Of a stretch of DNA of 18,875 bases, positions 2,387 to 18,875 are shown one piece after another. Position numbers and translations under genes: made by a program. The notes under the pieces were generated by a model, which did not search any database, was not told the origin of the DNA, and was given only the letters and a program-made list of their open reading frames with translations. The stretch's first letter is position 1. Every line of letters starts with the position of its first letter. The stretch comes from Escherichia coli (GTDB lineage: Bacteria; Pseudomonadota; Gammaproteobacteria; Enterobacterales; Enterobacteriaceae), in assembly GCF_003334335.1 (NCBI RefSeq), contig NZ_QOWQ01000056.1. One strand, given 5' to 3'.

Positions 2387-2570
2387 TCATTGGTATTACT
2401 ATTATTTCATCTATTGCACGAACTATTTTACAACAATAAAAAAGATATACAAACAGCAAGAAGTAAAAATATTCGGATAAATAAAAATTTTTGCTACCTT
2501 GGTTTCTATAGTCTTTATTTCTAAGTTTTTCATAAGCACTCAAAGACTCATGTATAGGGACGGTTTAATA

Positions 2571-2735: not shown

Positions 2736-2736
2736 C

Positions 2737-3060: not shown

Positions 3061-3069
3061 TTAATTTCT

Positions 3070-3105
3070 AAAGCAGCATAGCTTATTATGCAGCAATGCT
3101 GCTTT
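3070..3105. terminator. Candidate bidirectional rho-independent terminator between the convergent microcin-like gene and mchF
   Basis: aaagcagcat (3070-3079) pairs with atgctgcttt (3096-3105); an alternative tighter hairpin gcagc-aat-gctgc is followed by tttt. Located between the stop at 3060 (+) and the stop at 3121 (-). Confidence 0.45.
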
Positions 3106-3120
3106 TAGTGATATATTATC

Positions 3121-5223
3121 CTAATTTGTAATTCTAAAAATCCGATCAACTGTTCTTAAAGTTGTCTCTCTATGTGCAATAATCACCCGGGTGATATTCA
3201 TCTTTTTTATAGCAGCATTCACGAAACGTTCACTTTCTGTATCAAGAGAACTTGTAGCCTCATCCATAAATAATATTCCAGGTTTCCGGTATAAAGCTCG
3301 GGCAATGAATATACGCTGTTTTTGACCGCCGGAAAGACCTTCCCCCAGTTCACCTATTAACGTTTCATACCCCATTGGCATTTTCATTATCACATCATGA
3401 ATATGACTTGCTCTGGCACATTCTGTCATCCATTCGTCGTCTGTTTCTTCTGCAAACCCACAGATATTTTCACGAATTGATCCTGAAAATAGCCGGTCGT
3501 CCTGCATAACACAGGCTATCATACGGTGATAATTATTTATTCCAAGTTGACGTATATCCGTGCCATTAACCAGTACTTTTCCACTATCTGGTTCAAACAG
3601 TCCACATAATACTTTCATTAATGTGGTTTTTCCGGCACCGGAGGCACCAGTTATAGCCACACTTTCTCCCGGAGCCACAGACAAATTCAGACCACTGAAT
3701 ACCTGTGCTGACTGGCTGTCATACCGGTAGCTTAAATCAGTGGTTTCCAGTGAAACCGGGCTCATGTCAGCAACGATTTCAATTTCCGGTTTCTTTTCTT
3801 CCTTTTCATGTAGTGCAATATCTGCAATGCGCTCATTATGCAGACTCATTATTCTCAGTTGAAGAAGAAAACTGGTCAGCGAAGCAACCCGATCCGAAAA
3901 CTGCCCACGAAAAGAACCAAATGCCACAAACATCCCTATTGTCATCTGATTATCGATCACAAGGCTTGCACCCAGCCATAAAATCGCCACCTGATCACAG
4001 GCGGCAACAAAAGTATTTATCCCCCCGAAGAGCAAATCCATCCTGGTTAACTTAATACCTGAATTGATCGCATCTATTTTCAGGTTAAGCCAGTGTGTTC
4101 CCCGAATCCCAGCCATACCCTGGATTTTTACCGTGGCAATACCATACAGGCTTTCCATAAAATAGGAGCTGGCCCGGGCCCCCCTGACAAGAGTTTCTTC
4201 CGATATTTGCCGGTAATAGCCGTATGTCACCAGACGAATAAGAACGTAAACCATGGTAAAACCGAGCACTATCCAGGTAAGATATCCTCCATATAACAGC
4301 ATCATCACAAAAACACCCACAACCATAATACTGTCCATGATTGCCCCAACAACACAGGTGGTAAAGGTGGCCCTCAAAGTGTCAAGGGAGCCAAAACGCG
4401 ACTGGATATCACCTAATTTACGGCGTTCAAAAAACGCCAGCGGCAGTCTGAGAAGATGGTTAAACAGACCCGACTGCCACTGTATATTGATGAGCGTGCT
4501 CATAACCAGTGAGGACCATGCACGCAGCATACTCACCGCGGCCCTGAGCAATATAAAGAACATCAGGCCAGCAGAAATAAGCGTCAGCAGCCCTCTGTCC
4601 CCCGCCGGAATCGCATGATCCATAACCAGCTGAGTTCCCACCGGCATTACCAGATTGATTGCTTCAATTACAACTGACAGACAGAAAATTTTCGCCAGTG
4701 TTCTTTTAATACCGTAAATACTGTTAATCAGTGAACGGAGACTTATGCGGGTCTGCTGGGTTTCCGCCAGGAATTCACTTCCGGGCCAGACCTCAAGTGC
4801 AATGCCCGTAAAATACCGGCTCATTTCCTCCCGACCGAGATATCTTCTGCCTCTGGCCGGATCATGCAGTACATAACGGTTACGCTTTACGCTGACCAGC
4901 ACGACGAAGTGACTGAAATCCCAGTGGAGAATACACGGCATTTTGAGGGCACCAAGTTCATCCAGCTCCAGTGAAAGAGCCCGGGTGACCATCCCCAGCT
5001 GCTCCGCTATTCCATTGATTCCTGCAAGGTTTGCTCCACGGGCCGAGAGATTAAACTTCCGGCGAAGAGATATCAGGTCAATATTCTTACCAAAATGACC
5101 GCATATCATTGCCAGGCAGGCCAGTCCACATTCAGCGGTCTCCGTCTGATGAATAACCGGAACACGACGTCGCCAGCGCATATCAAGCTGATTTATAATT
5201 TGTCTGAAATTCCCGTTAGTCAT
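3121..5223 (-). CDS. mchF: Microcin export ABC transporter with N-terminal C39 peptidase domain (CvaB/MchF family)
   Basis: About 700 aa. C39 catalytic Cys context [14 protein letters not shown]; Walker [10 protein letters not shown]; ABC signature LSGGQKQR; Walker [10 protein letters not shown]. The track ORF (to 5241) begins at GTG; the ATG at 5223 ([10 protein letters not shown]) has AGGA 9 nt upstream and overlaps the mchE stop by 8 nt, as in cvaA/cvaB. Confidence 0.93.
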
Positions 5224-6457
5224 TGAGCGGTCCTGTTGCACTGTGTTTCATGTCATAGAAAGGAGAAAGCATCCACTGGTAAATACGCCTTTTTTCCAGA
5301 AATAGTGTACTTTCGGCTTTCATTCCATTTTCCAGAGGGAGGTATTTTTCGTCATATCTGATAATCTGCTTTTCAGGCATCGCAATGACTTTATACCAGG
5401 GAACAGAGTCGCCCGGCGTATTCTGTGGTGCTCCCTTATAGGTCAACATTTCCTGTGTTGACGCAGGAGTCCTGGATATAGTTTTAACCGTAGCAGAGAA
5501 CTGCCCAAATTTTTCTGCCGGAAAGGCTTCATAACGAATATTCACTTTGTCACCAGCCGAAATATAAGGAACAGCATCATTCGGGACCCAGAGAATAAGA
5601 TAATAGTTTTCAATGTTCTCAGGAATAACCTGCAGAAGGCTGTCTCCGGTATTGACCATTTGCCCGACAGTGACACTCAGGGAGTCAACTTTCCCGTCAG
5701 TCAACGCCCGGATAATGATTTCGCCCTCCACATCAGTGTTAACCAGTTCTTTCTGTAACTCATACCGTTGCAGTTCCATCTGGTAGATACGGTTATCAAA
5801 ATCTGCAGCCTGAGTCTGAATCTGACTCTCCAGAGTGGTTATCTGCAGGGCATTCTGTTCGTTCTGTCCGCTCAGGCTGAGAAGATTGTTTTGTTGCTGA
5901 TAATATAATGCCACCTGGTTAGTTAACTGATCTTTATTAATCAGCCCTTTTGCCTGATAGTTTCTGTAATTCTCCATATTGTTTTTCATTATTTTTATCC
6001 CTTCCTCTGCACGCTGTATAATATCTGATGAGCGACGAAACGCATCTGTGTATTGCAGGCGTTGTTTTTCCAGGGTATCTAGCGTTATTTTTTTACTTTC
6101 TTCCAGACGGGAAATAATGTTGTCCACACGAACCAACTGGTTTTCTATATCCCGACGATGATTATCAGTGACAATACCACTACGTGTACTTTTACTGATG
6201 TCAATCAGATAAACAGGATCCCCTTTTTTTATCAACTGTCCTTCATGAACAAACTGCCTGACAACAAATCCCTGTACACCTGAATATATATTGACAGCTC
6301 TTGGCCAGGTTGTGACCTCACCACTGACATTAACACGGCGGCTATAGGTACCAACAATAATGAACATCAGAAATGCCGTAATAAACACTATGCTTCCCAG
6401 CATGATTAACCATAGTGGTATTCCGGGAAGTAATATTGCCCGTCCCTGCCACTTCAT
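5216..6457 (-). CDS. mchE: HlyD-family membrane fusion / secretion protein (CvaA/MchE family)
   Basis: N-terminal TM segment ([28 protein letters not shown]) followed by a long coiled-coil region and C-terminal beta domain typical of HlyD-type partners. The track ORF starts at TTG (6490); the first ATG is at 6457 ([12 protein letters not shown]), giving 413 aa. Confidence 0.92.
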
Positions 6458-6642
6458 TTTTCTGTTTTCTAAAGCATCCTGACGAAACAAAATAGCTCCT
6501 CTTACTCACACTTTTCCTGTAATATCTTCACTGGTTAACCGAAATGCTATAATCAAAGCCAGAAAATACAGAGTCCTGTCAAAATAGTATCAGCGATGCA
6601 TTTACCCCGTAATTTACAATTATCTCTGTATCTTCAGAGGTA

Positions 6643-7095
6643 CTACGTTTTATGCAGCCGCTCAGGGATGTATGTCACAATTTTCTTTCGCCTGCTTAAC
6701 CATCGTACTTCTCCTTCTCCCCATGGCTGAAGCTGTATGAGATAGTCAATAACTTTTCGACCAAAGCCTGGTTTACAACAGAAATCCAGAATCCAAATCC
6801 TTCCATCTTCATTCCATTCAGACGGATGCAACCTGAATTCTGGATCCCTGAGCAGGCGCGCTTCTGTATCAGCCTCAAGATATGCCCAGGTAATATACGC
6901 CAGTGGAAAACCTCGTGAATCAAACAGGAATTTAATCTGATTATGCTGTATCGCATATTCAGTCCAGTATTGAATGGTTAACACCGGATACAGACTGTAA
7001 TTACGATTGTAGAGCATACAACTGACCGCAAAACCGATCTGTTCATAAACAGTCCATTCATCTTTTCCTCTGATGGTTTCCCTTATATAAGACAT
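6643..7095 (-). CDS. mchD: MchD/MceI-like microcin maturation protein (HlyC-like acyltransferase family), 150 aa
   Basis: ATG start at 7095; 150 aa; located between mchC and mchE in the conserved mchBCDEF order. In the E492 system the MceI/MceJ pair links glycosylated enterobactin to the C-terminal Ser of the precursor. Confidence 0.8.
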   Translation of the reverse strand: MSYIRETIRGKDEWTVYEQIGFAVSCMLYNRNYSLYPVLTIQYWTEYAIQHNQIKFLFDSRGFPLAYITWAYLEADTEARLLRDPEFRLHPSEWNEDGRIWILDFCCKPGFGRKVIDYLIQLQPWGEGEVRWLSRRKKIVTYIPERLHKT

Positions 7096-7120
7096 GATTA
7101 CTATTTCCCTTATATATTTT

Positions 7121-8671
7121 TTACACTGTGTTTCTTATCGGTTCAAGATATCCAAATGCATCTCTGGAAAACTTAAGCATAAAATTTTTCATATCAGAAA
7201 TTGCTTCTTGTAAAAAAAGGGGATCATCGCCATGATTATCCAGCAGGATGGCAATTTTTTCGCACATATTCTCTTTCCTCAGCTCTTCCCTGGGTTGCAG
7301 CCTTTTCATGGTATGATGTTCAATTTCTTTCAGGAGTAATGAGGCATTTATCTGACGTCTGGTACTGCCTTGCGTCAGCCAGTGGATGGCCTGGGAAAAA
7401 CACTGTTGTGCAACGGTGAAATAAACATCATTCTTGATGCTACTATTCAGTGCCTGCTTTTGATTATGCCTATGATGGATTAGCGTCACAACCAACTTTT
7501 GCAATGGTGAACCATCCTGATTGACAATATCTTGGGCATGTGATTTCTCGCAGTATTGATTGAGTAATGCAACAAAACTGTTAACCAGTTCTTTCAATAT
7601 ATCAGGTATCTCTTTTTGTGTTATAAATTCTCCAGGAATACCCAACAGTTCTAGATAACAGTAATAACATGCTTCATGAAAAGTTTTCTGAAATATCTCC
7701 TCAACCTTCAAACGGGCTGCAAGAGTGAAGTCAGGGTCAAACATATATTTTCCGATATACAAGCAGAGATCAGACAGCCCTTGCATAAGTACCATCGGTT
7801 CTTTTGCCAGTTCAGCTAATCTTAGTTTATACCCAAAATCAGCTGGGGAATCTCCCGGAAACAGACAACTGAGTCCGCTAAAATCCATTAATCTGCCATC
7901 CATTGCAATATTAGAAGGAGAAGTTGTCAATCTCAGGAAACGTGTTCGACAAAATGCCATTTGCCAGGCCTCACGACGTGCCAGTTCACATAACCCCTCA
8001 ATGCAATAAATCCGGGGATCAGTTCGTGCTTCAGCATCAATTTCTTCCGGTGGTACAGGTAGATATCCTGGCAGCTTGTGGATCACAGATCTAACCCGAC
8101 AGGCATCGTGAATTAACAGACTGGAATACTCCGGTTTTACTTGGAAGTAAGGTGCCCGTTCAAAATGCGCCGGACGAACAACAGGCTCACGTACCAACAG
8201 GGCTCTTCGTGATTTCCTACCGGAGCGCTCAAATGCCTTTTCAGTATAGAGATCTGTAAGTAAAACCGCCCGAACCCGCACAGCACTATAAGGTAATATT
8301 TGAGCCAGTACTTCTCCCCACAAAGCCTCATATATTGCATGAACAGCGCCGAGTGCACCATTAGAATGACGTTCGTCAGTACCTTCGCCAACCAACGGAT
8401 TACTTCCTATTCCTTTAACCTGGTAGTTACCATCAAACCCACAACGTGCACCACCTCCATTACGCTGAATACCACTGCCACCATAGCGCTCTGCATGGAA
8501 CACTTTGGCAGAAGCTGTACTGCCAGGATCGATAATATAACTGCAGGCATTTTGCAGCTCGTCTGGATTTCTGACATCCTCTGCACACCAGATTAATGAG
8601 GCCTTGATCTGCCTGGCAGTGAAAGGCACCAGGTTTTCATTCAGTTCAGAAAGTGAACACTGATGACTCAT
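7121..8671 (-). CDS. mchC: MchC/MceJ-like microcin maturation protein, 516 aa
   Basis: ATG start at 8671 (MSHQCSLSELNENLV...), GGAG about 12 nt upstream; 516 aa; immediately downstream of mchB on the same strand and upstream of mchD. Confidence 0.85.
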   Translation of the reverse strand: MSHQCSLSELNENLVPFTARQIKASLIWCAEDVRNPDELQNACSYIIDPGSTASAKVFHAERYGGSGIQRNGGGARCGFDGNYQVKGIGSNPLVGEGTDERHSNGALGAVHAIYEALWGEVLAQILPYSAVRVRAVLLTDLYTEKAFERSGRKSRRALLVREPVVRPAHFERAPYFQVKPEYSSLLIHDACRVRSVIHKLPGYLPVPPEEIDAEARTDPRIYCIEGLCELARREAWQMAFCRTRFLRLTTSPSNIAMDGRLMDFSGLSCLFPGDSPADFGYKLRLAELAKEPMVLMQGLSDLCLYIGKYMFDPDFTLAARLKVEEIFQKTFHEACYYCYLELLGIPGEFITQKEIPDILKELVNSFVALLNQYCEKSHAQDIVNQDGSPLQKLVVTLIHHRHNQKQALNSSIKNDVYFTVAQQCFSQAIHWLTQGSTRRQINASLLLKEIEHHTMKRLQPREELRKENMCEKIAILLDNHGDDPLFLQEAISDMKNFMLKFSRDAFGYLEPIRNTV

Positions 8672-8695
8672 CTGGCAGTATTCTCCGTTTCAATT

Positions 8696-8721
8696 TTCAT
8701 AAAAGAGTGTTCATAAAAGAG
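8696..8721. repeat. Tandem 12-bp direct repeat (ttcataaaagag x2, 2-nt spacer) in the mchC upstream region
   Basis: ttcataaaagag at 8696-8707 and again at 8710-8721, 25-50 bp upstream of the mchC start codon (8671, minus strand). Candidate operator or UTR element. Confidence 0.3.
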
Positions 8722-8942
8722 CAAGTAAGTGTCCTGACAGCTTCTTCCTTATTACAGTAAAACTCTATTAATTACACATAAATTAAAAAATTATTTATCA
8801 ACGACTGTAAATCATATCTTCATCAGTAAAGTGTTGAACATAAAAACACACTTATAAATGGATCTTCTATCTGTTTTAAACAAAAAGGATATATTTTACA
8901 GGTACTACCGAAAAAGTGCCTGTAAAATAAATAAAAATATAA

Positions 8943-9170
8943 TTAGCTACCGCCACCAGCAGAAGAACTGGCACTACCACTTCCCACGGTCGAGCCAATT
9001 GCTGTTGTCAAACCGGCAGATACGGCTCCAACTACAACCCCAAGTGGACCACCAGGTATTCCGGCGAGAGCTCCAACAATAGCTGCAGCACCTGCAGCAT
9101 TAGCTGAAGTCGCTGGCGCACCTCCCGCCCCGGAAATATATCTTAACTGTGATTCTGTTATTTCTCGCAT
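8943..9170 (-). CDS. mchB: Microcin H47 precursor (75 aa; 15-aa double-glycine-type leader, Gly/Ala-rich core, Ser-rich C-terminal tail)
   Basis: Translation MREITESQLRYISGAGGAPATSANAAGAAAIVGALAGIPGGPLGVVVGAVSAGLTTAIGSTVGSGSASSSAGGGS matches the microcin H47 precursor as I remember it (length, leader, SASSSAGGGS tail). ATG at 9170. Confidence 0.95.
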   Translation of the reverse strand: MREITESQLRYISGAGGAPATSANAAGAAAIVGALAGIPGGPLGVVVGAVSAGLTTAIGSTVGSGSASSSAGGGS

Positions 9171-9197
9171 ATAAACTGCATATAAACTCCATCATAT

Positions 9198-9407
9198 TTA
9201 ACTTCCGTTTTTCCAGTCTGACCAGACCAGAATCCTTCGAATCCCATGAATCAGCTCAATAAAACCAAGAAATATTATAAAGCTTAGAAAAACGTCAACA
9301 TAAGAATTCCCTTCGCCAACAATCCGAAGGGATGAAAGTGAAACCAATAAGATAGTAATAGGTAAACTGAATATAGCCGTCAATTGGGACAGTTTTTTAT
9401 AACTCAT
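9198..9407 (-). CDS. mchI: Microcin H47 immunity protein (69 aa, membrane peptide)
   Basis: 69-aa hydrophobic peptide (two predicted TM helices) directly upstream of and co-directional with mchB; ATG at 9407. Size and position match MchI. Confidence 0.88.
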   Translation of the reverse strand: MSYKKLSQLTAIFSLPITILLVSLSSLRIVGEGNSYVDVFLSFIIFLGFIELIHGIRRILVWSDWKNGS

Positions 9408-9475
9408 TAATCCCTACCTGTTGCTTTATTTTCATTATGAAAAGTTACCAAATCTTAGCACCTCAGTCAGGAGAG

Positions 9476-9595
9476 TCAGGTCATCGATAAAGAATATTCC
9501 AGTAGAGTGGCGCTCATGATCAAAGATAACAGCAAAGTTGATGACAGTGCTGACCGACTGTCATTTACAGAAACCCTGTTTGTAGCAAATTCCAT
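9476..9595 (-). CDS. mchX: Small 39-aa ORF upstream of mchI (MchX-like regulatory peptide)
   Basis: Not in the track (below 60 aa); found by hand: ATG at 9595 to TGA at 9476-9478, translation MEFATNRVSVNDSRSALSSTLLLSLIMSATLLEYSLSMT (39 aa). Position and length match mchX of the H47 system; I cannot confirm the sequence from memory. Confidence 0.55.
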   Translation of the reverse strand: MEFATNRVSVNDSRSALSSTLLLSLIMSATLLEYSLSMT

Positions 9596-9626
9596 CTTAC
9601 CTGACCTCACCCAGACAAAGACAAAA

Positions 9627-9645
9627 GAGAATGATTGTTATTTAC
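9627..9645. promoter_or_regulatory. Weak Fur-box-like site in the mchX / mchS4 divergent promoter region
   Basis: gagaatgattgttatttac matches the 19-bp Fur consensus at 13/19; it sits about 30-50 bp upstream of the mchX start on the minus strand. Confidence 0.3.
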
Positions 9646-9818
9646 TTTTCAAAAAAAGTGTCATATTGTCCATATAAAGTCAAGAGGTATTTTACGTTAT
9701 GTCACTGATGCAATTGTTAGTCAGGATCTCATGGTTGTCGCTCATGTATAACCTGAGACTTGAACGCACACTAATAGCGCTGACGGTCATACATCGGGAA
9801 ATGTGAGGAGGCATAAGA

Positions 9819-10064
9819 ATGAATTGTGATAATAATCACAGAAATGAAGAATTCATTGTTACCTTTGATAAAGGCAACAAGCAAGACAATTCAAGACGAA
9901 AACACGATAATTTTCCTATAGAGGTAGAATCCTCCGTAGAGCAGGAGACACACTGTATCACAAATAATAAGTCAGCTTCCGGTATAGTAACACATGGCTA
10001 TGATGCCGATTATATTTGTGGTTGTGGTGAAATTATGTGTCCTGGTTGCGGTCATGACCTATAA
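9819..10064 (+). CDS. mchS4: Small 81-aa protein with C-terminal Cys cluster (CxC-x4-CxxC), MchS4-like by position
   Basis: ATG at 9819 with SD gaggagg (9805-9811). C-terminus YICGCGEIMCPGCGHDL. Position between mchX and mchS3 matches the H47 island gene order as I recall it. Confidence 0.55.
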   Translation: MNCDNNHRNEEFIVTFDKGNKQDNSRRKHDNFPIEVESSVEQETHCITNNKSASGIVTHGYDADYICGCGEIMCPGCGHDL

Positions 10065-10084
10065 CAAACATTTTTGCAAACTGA

Positions 10085-10098
10085 TACCTGATCAGGTA
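10085..10098. repeat. Perfect 14-bp palindrome tacctgatcaggta just downstream of mchS4
   Basis: tacctgatcaggta is its own reverse complement; lies 21 bp after the mchS4 stop and about 120 bp upstream of mchS3. No loop, so it looks more like a protein-binding site than a terminator. Confidence 0.3.
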
Positions 10099-10219
10099 CA
10101 AGCCTGTTGATTATTATGCTGAATATTTCATGTTATAAAACCATCGATATAAACATTAACAAGAAAAAACATATATTGTTTATCTGAACATTTATCGATG
10201 GAAAACCAAAGGGGAAAGT

Positions 10220-10654
10220 ATGTATCTTACGAAAAAGATTATAATAAGTATGATGTTTATATTACCATCTGCTGCATTTTCATCAGATCCACCTCCCCTT
10301 CAACAATCGTTAGAAAAAACAACCTATTTTTCTATAGGTATGAATGGGTTTATAGGCTATCAGAGCGAAGGGGAAAAATTATACACACACATTCTTACAT
10401 TAGATAATCCCGAAGAGATATTTAAAAATATAATAGAAAATAGAAAGTCAACTAAGGAGTCTAAAATTTATGCTGCTTGTGGGCTATATTATTTAAACGT
10501 AGAAAATATAGAGTCATTGTTTAATGAAAATGATAAACAAGAATATATGTCTGTCTTAAGAGGGGATATTTTAACAAAAATAAAACTGAATGATATTCTG
10601 AATTCTGTGATAATAAATGGTTGCAACACCAAATTAATATCTGAACATAAATGA
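10220..10654 (+). CDS. mchS3: Putative immunity protein for the downstream microcin (144 aa, N-terminal signal/anchor), MchS3-like
   Basis: ATG at 10220 with SD aaagggga upstream; N-terminal hydrophobic segment KKIIISMMFILPSAAFSS; ends 16 bp before the microcin precursor gene, the classic immunity-then-toxin arrangement. Confidence 0.65.
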   Translation: MYLTKKIIISMMFILPSAAFSSDPPPLQQSLEKTTYFSIGMNGFIGYQSEGEKLYTHILTLDNPEEIFKNIIENRKSTKESKIYAACGLYYLNVENIESLFNENDKQEYMSVLRGDILTKIKLNDILNSVIINGCNTKLISEHK

Positions 10655-10670
10655 GCAGGAGGTTTTTAAA

Positions 10671-10907
10671 ATGAGAGAAATATCAGATCACATGCTTGAT
10701 TTCGTGAAAGGAGGGATGAATCTTAATGGATTACCTAGTTCTACTAATGTAATAGATCTACGAGGAAAAGATATGGGAACATATATTGATGCTAATGGAA
10801 CATGCTGGGCTCCGGGTACTCCATCCATCATCATGTATCCGGGGGGAAGTGGACCTTCTTATAGTATGAGTAGTTCCACATCCAGCGTAAACAGCGGCAC
10901 ATCATAA
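10671..10907 (+). CDS. mchS2: Second siderophore-microcin-type precursor (78 aa; leader MREISDHMLDFVKGG, Ser-rich tail), microcin I47-like
   Basis: ATG at 10671 with SD aggagg (10657-10662). 15-aa leader ending GG, 63-aa core with one Cys, C-terminal SMSSSTSSVNSGTS. Position next to mchS3 and mchS1 matches the H47 island. Confidence 0.8.
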   Translation: MREISDHMLDFVKGGMNLNGLPSSTNVIDLRGKDMGTYIDANGTCWAPGTPSIIMYPGGSGPSYSMSSSTSSVNSGTS

Positions 10908-10940
10908 ATACCCTCCGGCATGGCCGGAGGGTATTTATGA
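10902..10940 (+). terminator. Rho-independent terminator-like hairpin at the end of mchS2
   Basis: 18-nt arms tcataaataccctccggc / gccggagggtatttatga around a 3-nt loop (atg), with a GC-rich core ccctccggc/gccggaggg; overlaps the mchS2 stop codon. Confidence 0.5.
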
Positions 10941-11191
10941 TGTGCCTGTAAGACTCTACTTCTGTCGTCTCTTAACAAAGGCATATGATCTGTCATTTTG
11001 TACCAGACATCTTAACGAGAGCCTTTTCATATATTACTTACACACGTGAAATCTACAGTATAAAGCAAAAATTTTATTAAACCTGTTTTATATTTATCAT
11101 CAATACAACAGATTTAATTCCGGAAAGTCACTCATCATCCCTTGAATGAACGTCATTTGATGTATTATTCTTACACTTGGATTAATTTAAG

Positions 11192-12466
11192 ATGATACCT
11201 ATGAAAAACTATCTTTTCCAGACTCCCGAAGATATTTGTGTACAGTTAAAAAAAATGACACATCCTGTCACAATAAGAACAACAGATATTGCTAATTTCT
11301 GGCACTATCTTGAGTCAGCAACACTTCCAGTGATCACAAAAAGCACCACTACAGAAAATCGGGAGGTTACATTTCTGTGGCGCTCAGAGAAAGCACTGCA
11401 AGGCGTATATCTTCGCCTGAATCGTGTTACAGATAAAAAAGACGTCAAAAAAGGACTAATGACTCATATCCCTTCGACAGATATCTGGATGCTGACACTG
11501 GTGTTACCAGCTTCATATCGGGGCTCATACTCATTTATAGAAATTCCCACAGATATGACACAAAAAGACATATTTCAACTAGGAAGTCGCTTCTCTCCAT
11601 TACCCGGTAAATCTGATCCATTTAACAAAACAGCAGAAATAAATATACGAGGATTCGGAGAATCAGTCCTTTCTCTTGATATGGCTCCTGAACAAAAGGA
11701 ATGGGATGATACTTCCCATAAATGTACAGGTATTCTTTCAACATTACATTCCTTTGTTGCAGGATATCAACGCCGGATTCGTTTATATTTCCCCCTGAAT
11801 CCAACATCAGTACCTCTTGGATTACTTGTGTTACCTGATGCTGAAACATGGTTTGACCGGATAGATATTACCCGGGCATTAGATATGGCCATCACCACTG
11901 GTCGTATCACGCCAATGGCAATTATGGGGATAGACAATATTAATGAATCTGATCGTATGAATATACTGGGAGGCAATAAAGAACTCATCTTTGATATAGC
12001 GGAAAATCTGATACCCCAGTTATACAGAGACTATCCGGATATCGTATGGGCTGGTCGCTCTAATACTGTACTGGCCGGGCAGAGCCTCGGTGGAGTGACA
12101 GCACTGATGGCAGCTATATATGCGTCGACAACATTTGGTACAATCATTAGTCACTCACCTTCAATGTGGTGGAACCCTGACCAGGGCAGCCCGATCTTGT
12201 TTACTGAGAATAATACCTCCTGGGTAAGTGAGCAGATACTTTCAGCGCCTCCGAAAGATGTAAATATCCGACTTGGAGTCGGTTCTTTAGAAGGTACAAC
12301 CGTCTCACATGTTCAGCGATTGCATCATTCGTTAATCGCAGCTGGTTTGGAAAGTAACCTCACTGTCTATACCGGTGGTCACGATTATGCTTGGTGGCGC
12401 GGAGCAATTATTGATGAATTAGCAAATTATAATTGCAGGAAGGTATCAAATAATAACTCTGTGTAA
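11192..12466 (+). CDS. mchS1: IroD-like enterobactin/salmochelin esterase (alpha/beta hydrolase), 424 aa
   Basis: Serine-hydrolase nucleophile motif GQSLGG (AGQSLGGVTALMAA); size close to IroD/Fes-type esterases; convergent with and adjacent to the IroB-like glycosyltransferase. Alternative ATG at 11201. Confidence 0.8.
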   Translation: MIPMKNYLFQTPEDICVQLKKMTHPVTIRTTDIANFWHYLESATLPVITKSTTTENREVTFLWRSEKALQGVYLRLNRVTDKKDVKKGLMTHIPSTDIWMLTLVLPASYRGSYSFIEIPTDMTQKDIFQLGSRFSPLPGKSDPFNKTAEINIRGFGESVLSLDMAPEQKEWDDTSHKCTGILSTLHSFVAGYQRRIRLYFPLNPTSVPLGLLVLPDAETWFDRIDITRALDMAITTGRITPMAIMGIDNINESDRMNILGGNKELIFDIAENLIPQLYRDYPDIVWAGRSNTVLAGQSLGGVTALMAAIYASTTFGTIISHSPSMWWNPDQGSPILFTENNTSWVSEQILSAPPKDVNIRLGVGSLEGTTVSHVQRLHHSLIAAGLESNLTVYTGGHDYAWWRGAIIDELANYNCRKVSNNNSV

Positions 12467-12535
12467 AATATCGTTTTATCGTCCGATAACTCTTTCTGCA
12501 ATATTATTATGGGAGACTGTCTCATTTATTTAGTG

Positions 12536-12564
12536 ATGTCCTTCATTTATGTGATGAAGGACAT
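12536..12564. terminator. Candidate bidirectional terminator hairpin between convergent mchS1 and mchA
   Basis: atgtccttcat (12536-12546) and atgaaggacat (12554-12564) form an 11-bp stem with a 7-nt loop, flanked by T/A-rich runs on both sides. Confidence 0.45.
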
Positions 12565-12607
12565 TATATTACTCATAACATTTCTCGTTGAAAATTTCAG
12601 CAATACG

Positions 12608-13732
12608 CTACAATTGTTTCCCGTTGTTTTTTAATTTTCTCATCAAAACCTCTGCGATCTCTGCAGGAGTGGGTTGTTCAGCCATTTCAGCGGCTACCTG
12701 ATCTGAACAGAAGCGTAGTGAATCATCATAAAGCAGGCGATTTACCAAATCACTGGTCAGTCCATGCTTGTCCGGAATAATCCCACACCCACGCTTCGCA
12801 ACAATTTCTGCATTAACAGAGCGATCTGCACCTTCTCCAAACACAATCTGTGGTATTCCACTATACAGCGCTGTCAGGGTATTACCTGCGCCACCGTGAT
12901 GAATAAATCCATCAGCTCCATTAAGGAATACACCCATAGGTATCCAGTCAACCAGACGTACATTTGATGGTAGTTTTCGTAATCCAGTACGAGCATTTAT
13001 TGCAAGTTGCAAAATGATATCAGCATCAACTTCATTTGCTGAATCCATAACCCATGAAATCAGCTCCAGACCATCAACCATTGGTTTTACAGTGCCAAGG
13101 CTGATGAGTAAACGTTTCCGATCAGAATCCCTGTCCCACCATGTTTCCTTTACAGCACCTCCGTTATAAGGAATATATCGCATTGAGATAATCGGTTCTT
13201 CAGCATTTTTAAGAATGCTCATACTTGGGGGAGCAACATCAATCCATGCTAAATCACATAGTGGACCGCTGACTCCATGCCGCCTGTAAGCATTGCTTAA
13301 AGAACGGTTTAACATCTGAATATGGGCAGATGTATGCGCGAATCCAACAGCCAGCATCACTGAAGGAATTCTATATTTAGCAGCAACCAATGGGCCTGCC
13401 GGACCAAGCGGGGGATAGACTATTAAATCTGGCCTCCATTTTCCTGCAAAATCGATGAGGTTATCTGCCATTTCATCGCTAAAAAAAGAGAAATGACCAA
13501 TAATATTACTTTTTTTCCTCAACTCTTCCTGATGGCGATATCCAGCCTCTGAATCTAAACTTGGAGCTGCATCAAAAACAACCAGTCCAGCTTCTGCTGC
13601 TTTATTCGCGAATTTGCCAGCGCTACTAATTACTACATCATGTCCGATTACACGAAAGGCCTGAGCCAGAGAAATCAATGGGTATAACAAACCGTACAGC
13701 GGAGGGCCAATAAAAAGAATACGTTTTCGCAT
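12608..13732 (-). CDS. mchA: IroB-like C-glycosyltransferase (GT1/MGT family) for enterobactin glucosylation, 374 aa
   Basis: ATG at 13732 (MRKRILFIGPPLYGLLYPLISLA, the IroB-like N-terminus); UDP-sugar-binding signature region FIHHGGAGNTLTAL; length close to IroB. Confidence 0.88.
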   Translation of the reverse strand: MRKRILFIGPPLYGLLYPLISLAQAFRVIGHDVVISSAGKFANKAAEAGLVVFDAAPSLDSEAGYRHQEELRKKSNIIGHFSFFSDEMADNLIDFAGKWRPDLIVYPPLGPAGPLVAAKYRIPSVMLAVGFAHTSAHIQMLNRSLSNAYRRHGVSGPLCDLAWIDVAPPSMSILKNAEEPIISMRYIPYNGGAVKETWWDRDSDRKRLLISLGTVKPMVDGLELISWVMDSANEVDADIILQLAINARTGLRKLPSNVRLVDWIPMGVFLNGADGFIHHGGAGNTLTALYSGIPQIVFGEGADRSVNAEIVAKRGCGIIPDKHGLTSDLVNRLLYDDSLRFCSDQVAAEMAEQPTPAEIAEVLMRKLKNNGKQL

Positions 13733-14072
13733 TAAAAAAGTCCGTCTTCTGCTTACCTGTTTATTTTTCTATCGCTAAGAAAACATAATTAATATTATTT
13801 TTATGTGAGCTTATGCACAAAAATAACAAAGTATCTTATCTTCTGGTAGAGATACAGGATACAGTTTGTAGGAGCTTTCTTTTTTTGAACAATGATTTGC
13901 AGGACAGTTATGCCAACCTAGCAGAATCAGTATCACAACAATAAATGACAGATCATACCTGAAATTTGAATTAACAGGCATCATGAATGTCAATAGTCTA
14001 AGCGGTTACTACTTACATCGCTTGCATAAATACTAAACACTGACTAGAAAAGTATTGGATAACCCCGTCACT

Positions 14073-14105
14073 AAAAGTAACACTTCGGTTATTTGCTCGG
14101 AATGT
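14073..14105. repeat. Right copy of the imperfect direct repeat bracketing the microcin island
   Basis: See the 398-430 entry; the core at 14083-14105 is 21/23 identical to 408-430. It lies in the 675-bp non-coding gap between mchA and the alpA-like gene. Confidence 0.45.
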
Positions 14106-14407
14106 ATCAACGCCAAGATTGTTAGCCGTTACGCCTTATATCACTGGCGCTGACAAATGTTTCTTTTCTAATTTACTGAACCGGCGCAGACTTACAGAAA
14201 AACACTCCGGCACCGGTGTAATGCCAGTTATAATCAATAAGAATAGAATGACGAATCAGTCAGGAATAGCTATAACCTGCAGGCTGACTGGAGAATGTCT
14301 GTAAGAAGATGAACGTAAATGTCGCCAGTACCAGGGGCAGGGCCGGGTTCCACAATACCAGCGCCGGCATTTTGCACATTGCCAGCGTACCGGCATCACA
14401 ACACGTT

Positions 14408-14644
14408 TCATGCAGCTGCTCCTCGTGATTCCTCAATTCGCTGCTGCATCCACTGCTCCACTTCACTTTTGTACCAGCGGCTGCTGCGACCCAGTTTTAT
14501 GGGTTTAGGAAAATGACCTTCACTGATCAGCTTGTAAAACCATTTATCGGTCATACCGGTGAAACTGGTGATGTAGTTCATGTCGATCAGGGGATCGTCG
14601 GCACGCAGCAATACACTGTCGTGGCCTGTTATTGAGGTCAACAT
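14408..14644 (-). CDS. alpA: AlpA-family phage/island transcriptional regulator (excisionase-like DNA-binding protein)
   Basis: MTDKWFYKLISEGHFPKPIKLGRSSRWYKSEVEQWMQQR fits the AlpA-type helix-turn-helix pattern. ATG at 14644 with GAGGA upstream; alternative internal ATG at 14581 would give 57 aa. Confidence 0.75.
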   Translation of the reverse strand: MLTSITGHDSVLLRADDPLIDMNYITSFTGMTDKWFYKLISEGHFPKPIKLGRSSRWYKSEVEQWMQQRIEESRGAAA

Positions 14645-14712
14645 AGTCAGGATGTCCTCTGTGAGATTTATGGAGGTTGGGCAAATGCTGGTGAATCTGC
14701 TGAACTGAGCTT

Positions 14713-15288
14713 TCAGAACAGTCCTGCAGATCCGGGATAGCCGGGATTACCGGCGAGGCAACGGGCTTCCGGATCGCACACACCACGACGATCGCGGGCG
14801 AAATCACTGAACGCCCAGATCAAGTCTTTGAGGATGTCTTCGCAGTCCGGTGAACGACTGTCCAGCACCACATCCCGGGTGATCTGCTTCTGGTACGGTG
14901 CTGCTTCACCCGGTGATGCGAAGCCCAGTACGTTGCTCCAGGCATCCAGAATCAGCCGATCCAGTTCAGGGCCGTCGAAATACTCTTGTCTGACGCATAA
15001 CACCACGTGGTATTCCGGCTTTTCCGGATGACGGGTCAGGAGCCAGCAAAGGTCGCGTCCGGGTTTCGCATTCATCAGCGCACTGACGGTTTCGATAAAA
15101 TCCATACCAAACCAGGTCTGTCTGCTGTTGAAGGCGTTGTCATGTTCCCACGGCAGACGAAGCAGGATCCGCCGTATCCGTGAGCCGGACTGCTCACGCA
15201 GCGCACGCTCAAGGACGCCGATGACTTTGTTCTGATAAGATGGCCAGAAGGGTGCCAGGCTATAGTCGAAATAAGGAATAGCATTCAT
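14713..15288 (-). CDS. Inovirus Gp2-family (YagK/YfjJ-like) protein, about 191 aa
   Basis: The track ORF starts at TTG (15318); first ATG at 15288 (MNAIPYFDYSLAPFW...). Contains a YHVVLCV segment and shares overall pattern with the upstream paralog. This family is typical of P4-like islands next to alpA. Confidence 0.6.
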   Translation of the reverse strand: MNAIPYFDYSLAPFWPSYQNKVIGVLERALREQSGSRIRRILLRLPWEHDNAFNSRQTWFGMDFIETVSALMNAKPGRDLCWLLTRHPEKPEYHVVLCVRQEYFDGPELDRLILDAWSNVLGFASPGEAAPYQKQITRDVVLDSRSPDCEDILKDLIWAFSDFARDRRGVCDPEARCLAGNPGYPGSAGLF

Positions 15289-15535
15289 AAGATATGTTCC
15301 GTTATGCGCAGCCCACAATGCGTCCTGCCCGTGAATGAGCTGACGTGTTATGGCTTGCGGAATGAGATTGATGGAATAAGTGAAGAACCGAAGCAGAACG
15401 GGAAGACAAGGAACAAAACACCGGATGCAGGTTCAGGATGAATGATCTCCGTTGACTTCAGTTCACATCATTAATCAAGGCGGTAAGTTTTTACCGACGG
15501 AGTGTTTCCAGGAGCGAAGGCTCAGGCCTTAAGCT

Positions 15536-16102
15536 TCAGAAGTGAGGCTTACGAGGACGCCCTGCAGCAGGACGTTCAGGAACTTCATTGCAGCCGTAGG
15601 CACACAACCCGTCTTTTTGCTCTTCTTTCGCCAGATAATGCAGAGCACCGCGAATATTATCGATGCTTTCAGGCTCGTTATGACGCACAGGAATGTTGAT
15701 GTTGTATGTATAATGCGGCTGATATGTACAGCAGTGTGCCGAACCGCTGTTATGCGTAATAGACCGCCAGCATTCCGTAATCCGCTCCGCAAAGGGATAT
15801 ATTTTTTTAACCCTCTGACGATCGATCCAGAAAACCACATGCGCATGAAAACCATGATCAACCGTCCATTCAATCACCCAGAAGAAGCCAACCATATTTT
15901 CAAATTGTTCAACCTGCTCCAGCAGCATACGCAACTGCAATTCAAGCCAGCGATGATCAGGTTGTAAGAAATCGGGCGTATCTTTCCTGTAGAAGAAATC
16001 CATCCGTAAGGCCCGCAGGCAGGAATAGCGTGCCATCATTTGATTGATGTGATTGTCAAGTAAAGCGGTAAAAAACCAGTTTGGTGTGTAAGATTTAGGC
16101 AT
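15536..16102 (-). CDS. Inovirus Gp2-family (YagK/YfjJ-like) protein with HUH-like motif (FHAHVVFW), 188 aa
   Basis: ATG at 16102 with AGGAG 8-12 nt upstream. HAHVVF resembles the HUH motif of rolling-circle initiators from which this family derives. Tandem with the 14713-15288 paralog. Confidence 0.65.
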   Translation of the reverse strand: MPKSYTPNWFFTALLDNHINQMMARYSCLRALRMDFFYRKDTPDFLQPDHRWLELQLRMLLEQVEQFENMVGFFWVIEWTVDHGFHAHVVFWIDRQRVKKIYPFAERITECWRSITHNSGSAHCCTYQPHYTYNINIPVRHNEPESIDNIRGALHYLAKEEQKDGLCAYGCNEVPERPAAGRPRKPHF

Positions 16103-17585
16103 GTTGATGACTCCTGAAAGTTAATGATGTTTTAAGCTCTGTGAACGAATTAATGCTTTCGCTCATAATCAGATCTAAAACGGTAATAACTTACAGACGG
16201 TATTTATCAGGCATGCTGTAGCAGAATGGATACGACGGGTTATTAACGATACGCAGCATTATGCAGAAAGAAATGGATTATCTGATGGTATTAGCTAAAG
16301 AGATGAGATAAACGAGGAGTAAAGAAAATACAGACTCAATAAAACATCACGAAATACTGCAAAATACGCGATAAAACACCACGACCAGAAGGTTAAGAAA
16401 CATATTGCGACCAATCACATCATAAACTACAAACTTGCTCTCAGTGGTTGTAAAAACCGAGTACAAGGCCAATGCAATAAACTTATATGTGCTCATTCAA
16501 TCTGTTCTTAAGGACATGAACATTCACGGCTCACGATAGCAGAATAAAAAATACCACTGACATGATTTTCATCCTGCATCTTAGATAATACAACCCAGAA
16601 CAAACATAATCAGGAATCTCTCCTGTCAATTCCATTGTTTATCCAGCTCTGTTAATCGTTACAGAATCATGGATACCTTATCAAAAAGTAAACATTCGGT
16701 TAATCAGTGATGACAGAGGAATTGATGTTCATCAGAATAGTTAAAACACTTCAGGTCAACAACAATCATCGTTAAGCAAATACGATTCATGATGGATAAG
16801 ATTAAAATCAATTGCTGTTGCAGTGAAGACTGATAACAGATGGATATCAGCAACAGCGTAGTAGAGAATAACTTATCTGAATATTATATGAGTTACAGTA
16901 GTTATGATTGAATGAAAGGGAAGTTGATATTGTGATAATGGCGACAAAAAAGATTAGAGAAGGACATGAGTGAGTAAAGACAGAGTGAATAAAGATAGAG
17001 ATTATTTAAAAAGGGAGTGAGTATAGTTGAATGAGAGTAAGAGTAATGGAATGTGTAAAAACAGAGAGTGAATATAATTATAGTAATAAACCTAAATTAA
17101 AGTCATCCATGTTTGATGAGTAAAAATAATGTCAGAAAATGAATTTGTTTGAAAATTTTTCTCAGAGATAACCGTTCTGATGCTCAACGAACTCAATAAA
17201 TTGGCTAAGTCAGGTTACCTCATCCACACTCTATTTATTTTTATAAGAACCAATCATTTTGATCACCTACCGAGACACATCAATTTAGTGATGCGATAGT
17301 ATTGTATTGGTTATATAGATATTTATCGTTGTTGCCAATGCCCGGATTATTGGCCTCCAGGTATTCTCTTTACTTACAAACTAATTTTGAAACAGAGGTC
17401 GCTCCATTTTAGGAGTAGAATCTATGTAAAAGTCTGCTATGAGTGAGGAGCGAAAGTTTGATTGTCCCTCTAGGCTAGCTAATGAAAAAACTGAATTTTG
17501 AGCATTATTGCACGATAATCTTAGAGGTTGGTTACAGAATGTTGTGATATGATCCTCGATCACTTTAACTCATTGAATTTAAATT

Positions 17586-18800
17586 ATGGACAGTGGATTC
17601 GTAGATCTCGATATACTTCTTACACGAATTAGGCATGCCCAGTCGAAAACATACTTTCTTGATGCCGTTAAGGCCTACAAAGCGGGCGCGTTGAGGGGGG
17701 CACTAACTTCCGCTTGGGTTGCTCTCGTCTACGATCTGATAGCCAAATATCGTGAGCTTAGTGCCATGGGCGATGCAGCAGCGACTGCATTTCTTAATAC
17801 TTGGGACAACGCGACTAAATCAGGTGACATCCCTAAACTTCTCCAACTTGAGGGGGGCATTCTTGAAGACGCAACGGCCAATGCTCAGGTAGTCAACCGG
17901 TTAGCCCGAACTCACTTAGACCGTCTTCGCGAGGATAGGCATCTTTGCGCGCATCCAGCATTCTCAGCAGAAGCAGATCTATTCGAACCTTCTCATGAGT
18001 TAGTGCGACTTCATTTAGTAAATGCTGTGGAATTCGTCCTATCGCAAGAACCTTTACAGGGAAAAGCAATATTCGAGTTATATGACGTTGATGTTCAATC
18101 GCCCGGTTTTCCTACGGACAGTAAACGCATTCTTGATTATGTAGAACAACGTTATCTTACTCGCGTACGCGCTCAGAATATCAGTAACTTCGGCACGATT
18201 CTCGCCAAATCACTTCTCAAAGGTGTGCCAGAACAATGGGAAACGCTTTATCACCAGATTATTACATCATTAGTCGCCGTACGAGACCGCGCCAGCATTG
18301 CTTGGCCAAACGTTTCACTGTCAATTGTTAGGCTTATTGATAATCTAGAACCACGACATCGGCCTAGAGCGATCGCATTTATTGCCGCATTTAATGAGTT
18401 TTGGATGCAGCTTCAGGAGCCAACGCGAACAGTCTTGCTAGAGACTATTGAAAATGCCAATCCAGAAAATATCACTGATTACCGTATTTTGACTGGTGTA
18501 ACTTTCGTACCGTTTCAAGCCTCGCTGCAAAGGCTAATAACGGGACTAACTCAACAGCAGTTGGCCTCAGCGATCATCTTTAACCCACTTGCTGAACTTT
18601 GGGATAAGGCAATAGAATACTATGCAGAATCAGGTAGCTGGCGTGGATCTGAGGGGAACTTTATTTCTCTCGTCATACCGTTTTCTGGCCGCCTTAGTCA
18701 GCAACAGTTCGACCAACTTCTAGATGCTATCATTTCCAATACGCAGAATTGGGATGCCGCTGAGACGCCTAAGCTTCTCCTAGGAATGCTCCGCAATTGA
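17586..18800 (+). CDS. Hypothetical protein, 404 aa, no family recognised; N-terminal region has a HEPN-like R-x5-H motif (RLREDRH)
   Basis: Long clean ORF with ATG at 17586 and stop TGA at 18798-18800 abutting the right inverted repeat; balanced, non-repetitive composition typical of a globular protein. No convincing Shine-Dalgarno. The HEPN suggestion rests on one short motif. Confidence 0.55.
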   Translation: MDSGFVDLDILLTRIRHAQSKTYFLDAVKAYKAGALRGALTSAWVALVYDLIAKYRELSAMGDAAATAFLNTWDNATKSGDIPKLLQLEGGILEDATANAQVVNRLARTHLDRLREDRHLCAHPAFSAEADLFEPSHELVRLHLVNAVEFVLSQEPLQGKAIFELYDVDVQSPGFPTDSKRILDYVEQRYLTRVRAQNISNFGTILAKSLLKGVPEQWETLYHQIITSLVAVRDRASIAWPNVSLSIVRLIDNLEPRHRPRAIAFIAAFNEFWMQLQEPTRTVLLETIENANPENITDYRILTGVTFVPFQASLQRLITGLTQQQLASAIIFNPLAELWDKAIEYYAESGSWRGSEGNFISLVIPFSGRLSQQQFDQLLDAIISNTQNWDAAETPKLLLGMLRN

Positions 18801-18875
18801 GCCTGTACATAGATTTGTGTAATTGCCTGATTTTGATATGTTCAATCCAGCATCAAATGAAGGTTAATTTATGGA
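18799..18875. repeat. Right copy of the perfect 77-bp terminal inverted repeat (partner at 1-77)
   Basis: Exact reverse complement of 1-77; its inner boundary overlaps the last 2 nt of the stop codon of the 404-aa ORF. Confidence 0.9.

Follow-up and report, generated by a model that had tools for sequence, protein, structure and literature searches.

An AlpA and Gp2/YfjJ-type gene module as the probable island backbone that carries the inserted microcin H47 island in Escherichia coli

The K-12 element CP4-57, with the gene order intA - alpA - yfjI - yfjJ, brings together on one strand a P4-family integrase next to a tRNA-type gene, the regulator AlpA and YfjJ, a protein of the Gp2 family. There alpA is the neighbour of the integrase and precedes yfjJ, from which yfjI separates it, and YfjJ retains an HYH and a YMTK motif. 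No member of the YagK/YfjJ family with a tested function was found in the literature. Among AlpA proteins, CP4-57 AlpA, Hef and the AlpA of GIsul2 are described as activating integrase expression or directing excision, each in its own island (PMC9376610). In the tmRNA islands of Pseudomonas that are moved by a jumbo phage, the integrase and alpA occupy opposite ends and enclose defence cargo, and a Gp2-like gene and RadC lie in a conserved region near the alpA end; the Gp2-like gene and the integrase-distal alpA are regarded as likely core functions (PMC12595487).

A further described system is located at the very locus studied here. The microcin H47 island (Azpiroz et al. 2011, PMC3191183; 2017, PMC5426353) carries mchB, mchI and mchF between imperfect flanking repeats, all of which are found in our DNA, and its att repeats have been described (PMC3191183). 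The genes that concern us correspond to the 'right adjacent region' of that work, in which a term search (main text only for PMC5426353) finds no mention of alpA, yfjJ or yagK.

Here we analyze a stretch of 18,875 nucleotides of an E. coli contig (NZ_QOWQ01000056.1), referred to as the window, with a focus on positions 14408-16102. We consider it likely that this segment holds three of the four genes of a conserved backbone module found in tRNA-borne E. coli islands of the CP4/P4-integrase type, with microcin H47 as cargo. On the minus strand the module reads ORF2, ORF1, alpA and gene #3. In the closest complete genomes it shares with CP4-57 the combination of P4-family integrase, AlpA and a Gp2-family protein, and ORF1 is a detectable homologue of YfjJ. 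Unlike in CP4-57, two Gp2-type genes precede alpA, the integrase of those genomes is 45-78 kb off, there is no yfjI, and ORF1 has neither of the two motifs that YfjJ retains. The Pseudomonas islands are similar by description; they differ in genus and attachment site and have one reported Gp2-like gene instead of three or four (PMC12595487). The identities of the module genes are well supported; their functions we infer.

Identity and integrity of the module genes

ORF2, ORF1 and alpA are three ORFs on the minus strand, at the positions at which the preliminary description had placed three genes. They are real genes, because dN/dS against diverged orthologues is 0.03-0.24 at dS 0.09-0.34, indicative of purifying selection on all three. 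All loci examined, which have 85-96% nucleotide identity, keep the reading frames of the module genes intact.

The alpA gene (14408-14644, minus strand) encodes a 78-aa AlpA/Xis-type helix-turn-helix protein and has a dN/dS of 0.04-0.07. Its assignment, made earlier from the letters alone, is borne out by matches to Pfam Phage_AlpA (PF05930, 2.6e-10, residues 23-66) and HTH_17 (2.3e-5), to the PHROG 'excisionase and transcriptional regulator' (6.9e-10) and to K-12 AlpA (25% identity, E 3e-6). The product scores under the cut-off for the NCBIfam model 'excise' (20.6 vs 28.8 bits).

ORF2 (15536-16102, minus strand) encodes a 188-aa Gp2/REP_ORF2-G2P-type protein. Its matches to PF11726 (YagK_YfjJ_C, 8.8e-5) and PF23343 (REP_ORF2-G2P, 1.3e-4) are weak; its homologues carry the same domains, and it aligns end to end (96-100% coverage) with proteins of about 190 aa from many genera. 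The HUH-like HAHVVF motif that had been noticed in one of the Gp2-type ORFs is present at residues 86-91. Across the ORF2 family E78, H86, Y156 and K159 are invariant, and A87 and H88 are almost so. Conservation and structure modelling together show ORF2 to have a predicted HUH-nuclease fold with the full catalytic signature of Glu, HUH and YxxK, the putative site E78, H86-A-H88, Y156-L-A-K159 being intact. Parvovirus NS1/Rep, SIRV1 ORF119 and rolling-circle Rep, all HUH nucleases, are the best specific fold matches of predicted ORF2 and ORF1, and ORF2 shares with them the three elements in the expected order. As differences from these proteins, ORF1 and ORF2 are devoid of a helicase domain, and ORF1 is devoid of the catalytic residues. 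A PDB sequence search with the ORF1 and ORF2 family profiles matched no solved structure. Small rolling-circle plasmids were considered as support for a Rep role. In the plasmid collection, relatives of ORF2 are found on large replicons only, mostly 110-kb Acinetobacter plasmids, and they therefore provide no independent support for such a role.

ORF1 (14713-15288, minus strand) is 191 aa long from its ATG and 201 aa from a TTG at 15318; the RefSeq start and the N-termini of homologues back the ATG. It has no match of its own in Pfam, NCBIfam or PHROGs, and one distant member of its family matches PF11726 at 1.7e-10. The preliminary description had proposed to align the Gp2-like products to YfjJ. 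In hhalign, ORF1 residues 7-160 align with residues 3-185 of the 208-aa K-12 YfjJ (probability 96%, E 4.4e-9). The predicted fold matches more than 100 Gp2/YagK-YfjJ models, and the top non-self Foldseek matches are all family members. On these profile and fold comparisons we accept ORF1 as a divergent YfjJ-type protein belonging, at superfamily level, to the YagK/YfjJ - REP_ORF2-G2P ('inovirus Gp2') family. Its active site is degenerate: the first His of the HUH motif is replaced by E, C or F in the family (EYH here), and the Tyr of YxxK is absent, with an invariant Asp162 in the aligned SDFAR in its place. Because both the first His and the Tyr are lost, ORF1 is probably catalytically dead. 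As judged from a full HMMER scan of 1.84 billion representative proteins, the ORF1 family is narrow, comprising only E. coli relatives and two distant full-length proteins.

Could alpA, ORF1 and ORF2 be decaying relics of an old mobile element with no present function? The remote integrase, the many IS elements and relic fragments around the genes and the lost catalytic residues of ORF1 would all suit such a history, as would a small ORF after alpA whose frame differs between lineages. The selection on all three genes and their intact frames point the other way, as do the presence of part of the region in 2615 genomes and the retention of the same gene set across genera, and we consider decay unlikely.

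Gene #3 and the microcin H47 cargo

Gene #3 (79-423, minus strand) is named 'inovirus-type Gp2' or 'UCP030791 family' in RefSeq and is truncated after residue 115 by IS1414, which bounds the contig at both ends. It has 88% identity to residues 1-115 of a 182-aa protein (tblastn). Compared with the superfamily alignment it gives a collinear hhalign match (probability 39%, E 3e-4), and it has no Pfam match; in other taxa, PF27752 genes come after ORF1-type genes. At sites empty of the microcin island gene #3 directly follows alpA, and the module is found without that island, with alpA then gene #3, in at least 1196 of 5426 complete genomes. Gene #3 is the fourth member of the module, parted from alpA by the microcin island. 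The trio of AlpA and two Gp2-type genes, earlier called characteristic of P4-like islands, stands as far as the pairing of AlpA with Gp2-type genes recurs (K-12 CP4-57, Enterobacter, Klebsiella, metagenomic contigs) and falls short in its count, the unit having a fourth gene.

The attL core (381-430) overlaps the GTG start and the first 14 codons of gene #3. The attR core of the H47 island (14057-14105) forms a direct repeat with it and is derived by decay from the 5′ end of a gene of the #3 (UCP030791) type: translated in register it reads EQITEVLLL, against VQITEALIS in intact gene #3. Unlike the earlier accounts (PMC3191183, PMC5426353), these comparisons show, at the level of sequence, that the published repeats are the 5′ end of a Gp2/UCP030791-named gene, gene #3, at attL and its decayed copy at attR. 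Inserted as cargo, the microcin H47 island lies between alpA and gene #3. Separately, a 19-mer at 16684-16702 may be a third att-like copy (3 mismatches, 0.01 expected by chance); its translation resembles the start of gene #3 only weakly, and we keep it as no more than a possible relic.

With attR only about 300 bp from alpA, the module might be taken for a part of the H47 island that supplies the island's own excision functions. This is very unlikely. The excision signals persist when the right flank is cut to 95 bp, and they arise in K-12 too (PMC3191183); a terminator-like hairpin followed by a T-run (14198-14227, minus strand; kept in four lineages) lies between alpA and attR; and the genomes that carry the module without the microcin island are numerous. 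The earlier view that these genes belong to an island backbone is upheld; they are not microcin genes.

The backbone reading leaves room for a connection in trans, to which we give very little credence. Gp2/YfjJ-family HUH proteins (ORF2, or YfjJ or YagK in K-12) might be the trans-acting function that moves the RecA- and integrase-independent H47 island, at its att repeats, by analogy with Rep proteins that have their origin within or next to the gene encoding them. In the 2017 study, 16 tyrosine and serine recombinases were tested along with RecET (PMC5426353). If ORF2 does nick DNA, it would offer a concrete candidate for the unexplained excision of this island.

Island context and distribution

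The preliminary description had seen neither an integrase nor a tRNA gene in the window, and this agrees with our searches: ARAGORN finds no tRNA in the whole window, where Rfam matches no RNA family either, and no integrase is annotated in the stretch of strain N10 that is 100% identical to the window over 78-17826. It had further suggested looking outward for both genes, which was done in related genomes. In N10, alpA is 45 kb from a tRNA-Phe and a CP4-57-type integrase with 36% identity to IntA; the distance to leuX and an integrase in strain 64.1 is 78 kb. The suggestion that the microcin cluster sits in a larger P4-like tRNA-borne island thus holds in these closest complete genomes. A 76-aa gene near the N10 integrase, checked as a possible second AlpA, is not AlpA. 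The host islands measure about 54 kb or more and about 100 kb, and no conjugation genes are annotated in the island loci examined.

Part of the 3.6-kb module region is present in 2615 of 5426 complete genomes, so that roughly every second complete E. coli genome has some part of a region encoding an unstudied family. In other genera the same families are found beside alpA, at the border between a conserved arm of GTPase, DUF932, antirestriction, RadC and CbtA genes and the defence cargo; alpA comes first there and downstream of the Gp2 genes here. The module is an ordinary, widely shared island backbone. Our analysis assigns the microcin H47/I47 cluster to this common backbone as its cargo and corrects the gene model to four module genes, with ORF1 and ORF2 as ancient relatives. 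It also points to a recurrent arrangement in which an apparently intact, predicted HUH-nuclease-like gene accompanies inactivated relatives and AlpA where conserved island genes meet defence or virulence cargo.

P4-like and PICI satellites have AlpA as a marker gene, and both Pfam and RefSeq names cite inovirus Gp2. Reading the region on these grounds as a P4-like or PICI phage satellite, or as a filamentous (inovirus) prophage, is hardly credible. A tblastn search of 50,697 phage records returns relatives of ORF2 in two Acinetobacter contigs only, at 22% identity; the counterpart of the window has no annotated primase, capsid-redirection, coat or Zot-like genes, and no primase-replicase, capsid-redirection or packaging genes are annotated there or in its flanks; and the host islands are far larger than a compact satellite of 10-20 kb.

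Relationship of ORF1 and ORF2 and noncoding elements of the unit

The preliminary description had called ORF1 and ORF2 tandem paralogs. They do belong to one superfamily, as far as profiles and models tell, and they are adjacent and of like length, as recent tandem duplicates would be. Direct comparison of the two, however, is not significant with either BLASTP (E 0.022 over 40 residues) or hhalign (probability 1%), and we have dropped the wording 'paralog pair'. ORF1 is nearer to canonical YfjJ, ORF2 falls in the REP_ORF2-G2P branch, and both lineages occur separately in other genera, alongside a third type. Recent duplication is thus scarcely tenable. Since the pairwise comparison is null and the membership of ORF1 comes from indirect evidence, we regard the two as deep superfamily relatives and not as tandem duplicates.

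That they are pieces of one longer gene split by a frameshift or deletion, as had been suggested from the gap between these same-strand neighbours, is refuted by the full-length alignments of ORF2 with its homologues and of ORF1 with YfjJ; each is a complete predicted domain alone (pLDDT 84 and 87), both are intact and under purifying selection, ORF1-type and ORF2-type genes are found apart in other taxa, and the gap contains a relic leader and a start region in place of coding sequence. The gap had been given as 218 bp with a TTG start; from the TTG it measures 217 nt, and the better-backed ATG makes it 247 nt. On alignments and models, ORF1 and ORF2 are ancient, very distant relatives, neither recent duplicates nor halves of a pseudogene.

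By blastn, the relic leader in this gap (15432-15494, minus strand) is 75-76% identical to the stretch that, in three genomes, immediately precedes a 243-aa Gp2 gene. It corresponds by homology to the Shine-Dalgarno sequence and start of that canonical gene, with the ATG changed to CTG.

We propose that the unit would be transcribed from the AT-rich (33-38% GC), ORF-poor region upstream of ORF2 (16103-17585, minus strand) and end at the hairpin past alpA. AlpA may then act in trans on the distant integrase or on att sites and promote excision, in analogy to CP4-57 AlpA, Hef and GIsul2 AlpA. ORF2 might nick island DNA and so initiate replication of the excised circle or its transfer, with ORF1 as a putative non-catalytic DNA-binding or partner subunit. 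Nicking by ORF2 would bear on how large islands with no annotated conjugation genes replicate or move. An antitermination model for AlpA is not pressed, the long leader having 3 terminator-like sites vs 2.8 in shuffles.

Within the AT-rich region, a promoter scan finds a promoter-like site at 17106-17077 with 10 of 12 matches. An iteron-like repeat, GAGTGARTAWAG, occurs in four copies at 16968-17077, where 0.34 would be expected and none of 200 shuffles reaches four; the iterons are only partly conserved between E. coli lineages. A TATA..ACTCACTC element is found upstream of ORF2-type genes in Enterobacter, Klebsiella and one metagenomic contig.

A four-gene module split by the microcin H47 island

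The window carries the microcin H47/I47 cluster, and its positions 78-17826 are 100% identical to E. coli strain N10, where RefSeq annotates mchB, mchI, mchF and the maturation genes in the counterpart of the window. We fused the left flank to the right flank as a synthetic 'empty site' query and searched 5426 complete genomes, of which at least 1196 matched it in one piece. The gene order at these empty sites is ORF2, ORF1, alpA and then a 182-aa gene (gene 3), which RefSeq variously names 'inovirus-type Gp2', 'YagK/YfjJ domain' or 'UCP030791 family'. All four have counterparts on the minus strand of the window: ORF2 (15536-16102, 188 aa), ORF1 (14713-15288, 191 aa from its ATG or 201 aa from a TTG at 15318), alpA (14408-14644, 78 aa) and the first 115 residues of gene 3 (79-423, 88% identity), where the gene is cut by IS1414. 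The module is a four-gene unit split by the microcin island. Gene 3 has no Pfam match, and a collinear hhalign alignment (probability 39%, E 3e-4) is only suggestive of its membership in the Gp2/YagK-YfjJ superfamily.

The imperfect repeats published for the H47 island (PMC3191183) are located at 381-430 (attL) and 14057-14105 (attR). Since attL spans the GTG start of gene 3 and its first 14 codons (VQITEALISEPGDI) and attR is a decayed in-register copy that has lost the start codon (EQITEVLLLVTGLS), these 'att' sites are the 5′ ends of a module gene. This makes it conceivable that the HUH proteins of the module provide a trans-acting factor for excision of the H47 island, the signal of which is independent of the flanks, RecA and 16 K-12 site-specific recombinases (PMC3191183, PMC5426353). 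We consider such a role highly improbable: H47 recombination was spread over several segments of identical sequence (PMC3191183), no product of excision was recovered in vivo and the att cores form no hairpin. The main text of the 2017 study (PMC5426353) makes no mention of yfjJ or yagK.

A 19-mer at 16684-16702, in the AT-rich region upstream of ORF2, differs from the attR core at 3 positions (0.01 such matches expected by chance), and its translated similarity to the start of gene 3 is weak. This could be a third copy of the 5′ end of gene 3, now decayed, and, if so, hints at repeated accretion of module copies.

Relationship and predicted activity of ORF1 and ORF2

The locus itself is already known, through its RefSeq annotation, the published island and a UniProt entry that labels an ORF1 orthologue 'Inovirus Gp2 family protein'. 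The refinements offered here are the prediction that ORF1 is a dead paralog, the extension of the unit to four genes, the recognition that the att repeats are the 5′ end of a gene, and a neighbouring defence slot.

ORF2 bears the HAHVVF motif noted in the preliminary description, matches the Pfam families YagK_YfjJ_C (8.8e-5) and REP_ORF2-G2P (1.3e-4) and has full-length homologues of ~190 aa in Escherichia, Salmonella, Citrobacter, Enterobacter, Klebsiella, Serratia and Xenorhabdus. ORF1 has no match of its own in Pfam, NCBIfam or PHROGs and belongs to a narrow family: only E. coli relatives and two distant full-length proteins came up in an exhaustive HMMER scan. Direct comparison of the two is non-significant (BLASTP E 0.022 over 40 residues; hhalign probability 1%). 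Indirect evidence places them in one superfamily: the profile of the ORF1 family aligns with K-12 YfjJ (hhalign probability 96%, E 4.4e-9, 154 columns) and with the canonical 243-aa Gp2 protein (probability 85%), one distant ORF1 relative matches PF11726 at 1.7e-10, and over 100 'Inovirus Gp2 / YagK-YfjJ' models are recovered with the ORF1 AlphaFold model (pLDDT 84) at TM 0.7-0.8. ORF1 and ORF2 are thus ancient relatives from different subfamilies; their earlier designation as paralogs holds for the superfamily and not for the pair directly, and the two are not a tandem duplication.

Each ORF spans a full-length family member and is predicted to fold as a complete domain, which dismisses the suggestion that they are pieces of one disrupted longer gene. 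The TTG start previously assigned to ORF1 is likewise disfavoured, as the RefSeq start and the aligned N-termini of distant homologues point to the ATG. Within the gap between ORF2 and ORF1, 63 nt (15432-15494) match the Shine-Dalgarno/start region of the 243-aa Gp2 gene at 75-76%, with CTG where that gene has ATG; the segment is a relic start site rather than lost coding sequence. Among orthologues of 93-98% nucleotide identity (dS 0.09-0.34), dN/dS is 0.03-0.24 for ORF1, 0.16-0.21 for ORF2 and 0.04-0.07 for alpA, and these low values (0.03-0.24 overall) argue against a reading of the genes as junk.

In a joint alignment, ORF2, YfjJ and the 243-aa Gp2 protein have in common a WVxE glutamate, an HUH triplet (HAH/HYH) and a Y-x-x-K helix (YLAK, YMTK and YLVK, respectively). 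E78, H86, Y156 and K159 are invariant in the ORF2 family, and A87 and H88 nearly so. Judged by these residues, ORF2 has all that an HUH nickase needs and is a putative nuclease. In the ORF1 family the first His is replaced by E, C or F, and an invariant Asp162 (SDFAR / SDMAR) occupies the expected Tyr position, substitutions that predict a catalytically dead member.

Island context in related genomes

The proposal that the module belongs to a larger island, with its tRNA and integrase outside the window, is supported in related genomes. The window contains no tRNA (ARAGORN) and no Rfam family, and the identical stretch of N10 has no annotated integrase. Further outward, N10 has tRNA-Phe and a 421-aa tyrosine integrase 45 kb left of alpA (36% identity to CP4-57 IntA, E 7e-78), and strain 64.1 has leuX and an integrase 78 kb left of alpA. 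The right arm of 64.1 begins with 243-aa Gp2, GTPase, DUF932, antirestriction and RadC genes, continues with CbeA/CbtA, DUF5983 and DUF957, and ends near nanM and fimB. Other strains share this layout with different cargo left of alpA. After alpA, Enterobacter, Klebsiella and two metagenomic contigs carry ORF2-type, YagK-type, ORF1-type and UCP030791-type genes, placed between the conserved arm and defence cargo. K-12 CP4-57 has intA, alpA, yfjI and yfjJ, and Pseudomonas tmRNA islands likewise contain a Gp2-like gene, their alpA lying at the end far from the integrase (PMC12595487). That AlpA pairs with Gp2-type genes is a general feature of these backbones.

In all complete islands examined (loci L002 7879-8610, L006 19857-20588, L007 21461-22192 and L009 21623-22354 of the compared genomes), a canonical 243-aa Gp2 gene (HYH, SYLVK, YGCSRG) lies on the same strand as ORF2, a few kb past it. 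With this further gene, the backbone carries up to four genes that are Gp2-type or so named by RefSeq; two of them retain the catalytic set, which ORF1 has lost, and gene 3 has IRC at the HUH position.

The right arm of N10 has been lost to IS3 and IS1 beside a truncated ghoS: at 23870-28405 of the N10 locus (L001), IS3, a 407-aa hypothetical gene and IS1 abut ghoS and the right arm is missing. K-12 has chromosomal genes between ghoS and pheU, and the N10 arrangement suggests that an IS-mediated deletion removed the island end along with those genes. The window itself terminates in perfect inverted copies (1-77 and 18799-18875) of one end of the IS256-family element IS1414, one cutting gene 3 and the other abutting a PD-T7-3-like gene. 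The 18.7-kb segment holding the microcin cluster, the module and the defence gene is therefore bracketed by inverted IS, which represents either a composite-transposon-like layout or simply assembly breakpoints.

Possible roles, control region and neighbouring genes

The alpA product matches Pfam Phage_AlpA (2.6e-10) and a PHROG of excisionase/regulators, and is 25% identical to K-12 AlpA. AlpA-family proteins activate integrase expression (CP4-57) or serve as excisionase (Hef), and overexpression of the GIsul2 AlpA yields more circular intermediates (PMC9376610). From these roles, a trans effect of the alpA product on the distant integrase or att sites would be expected. The likeliest role of ORF2 would be that of a nickase of island DNA that sets off replication or transfer of the excised circle; ORF1, and perhaps gene 3 too, would be putative non-catalytic partners. 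This model is weakened on several counts. We found no studied member of the YagK/YfjJ-type family in the literature and no solved structure related to the ORF1 and ORF2 families. Plasmid-borne relatives of ORF2 reside on large replicons, not rolling-circle plasmids, and phage genomes are essentially devoid of the family, making 'inovirus Gp2' a misleading name.

Upstream of ORF2, an AT-rich, ORF-poor stretch of 1.5 kb is a candidate control region. The best sigma-70-like promoter site in the region is at 17106-17077 (minus strand), and four iteron-like copies of GAGTGARTAWAG lie within 110 bp at 16968-17077 (minus strand; 0.34 expected by chance). Enterobacter, Klebsiella and a metagenomic contig have an element, TATA..ACTCACTC, resembling the reverse complement of this repeat, ~210-230 bp upstream of their ORF2-type genes. 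In the window the element stands ~900 bp upstream of ORF2, a distance that implies either a long AT-rich leader or intervening genes that have decayed.

Strains differ in what fills the variable slot that separates ORF2 from the 243-aa Gp2 gene: one has a TIR protein there, and another has DUF6530, a recombinase, an HNH endonuclease and a restriction endonuclease. In the window this slot, next to ORF2, is occupied by a plus-strand ORF of 404 aa (17586-18800) whose entire length matches the PADLOC anti-phage model PD-T7-3 (E 1.3e-36, profile 5-398/432) and which has no Pfam, NCBIfam or meaningful PHROG match. Because its last codons enter the IS1414 end, it may be slightly truncated.

On the 3′ side of alpA, a terminator-like hairpin (14227-14198, minus strand) is kept in four lineages. 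A small ORF (14256-14466, minus strand) overlaps the alpA stop codon (ATGA), and its counterparts in other lineages encode a hydrophobic peptide (..LVLATLPFIFLLT.SGQPA..). Whether MKRV is in frame with that peptide depends on indels close to the ORF start, and in the window it is out of frame; the ORF is possibly a gene for a small membrane peptide, degenerating in the window.
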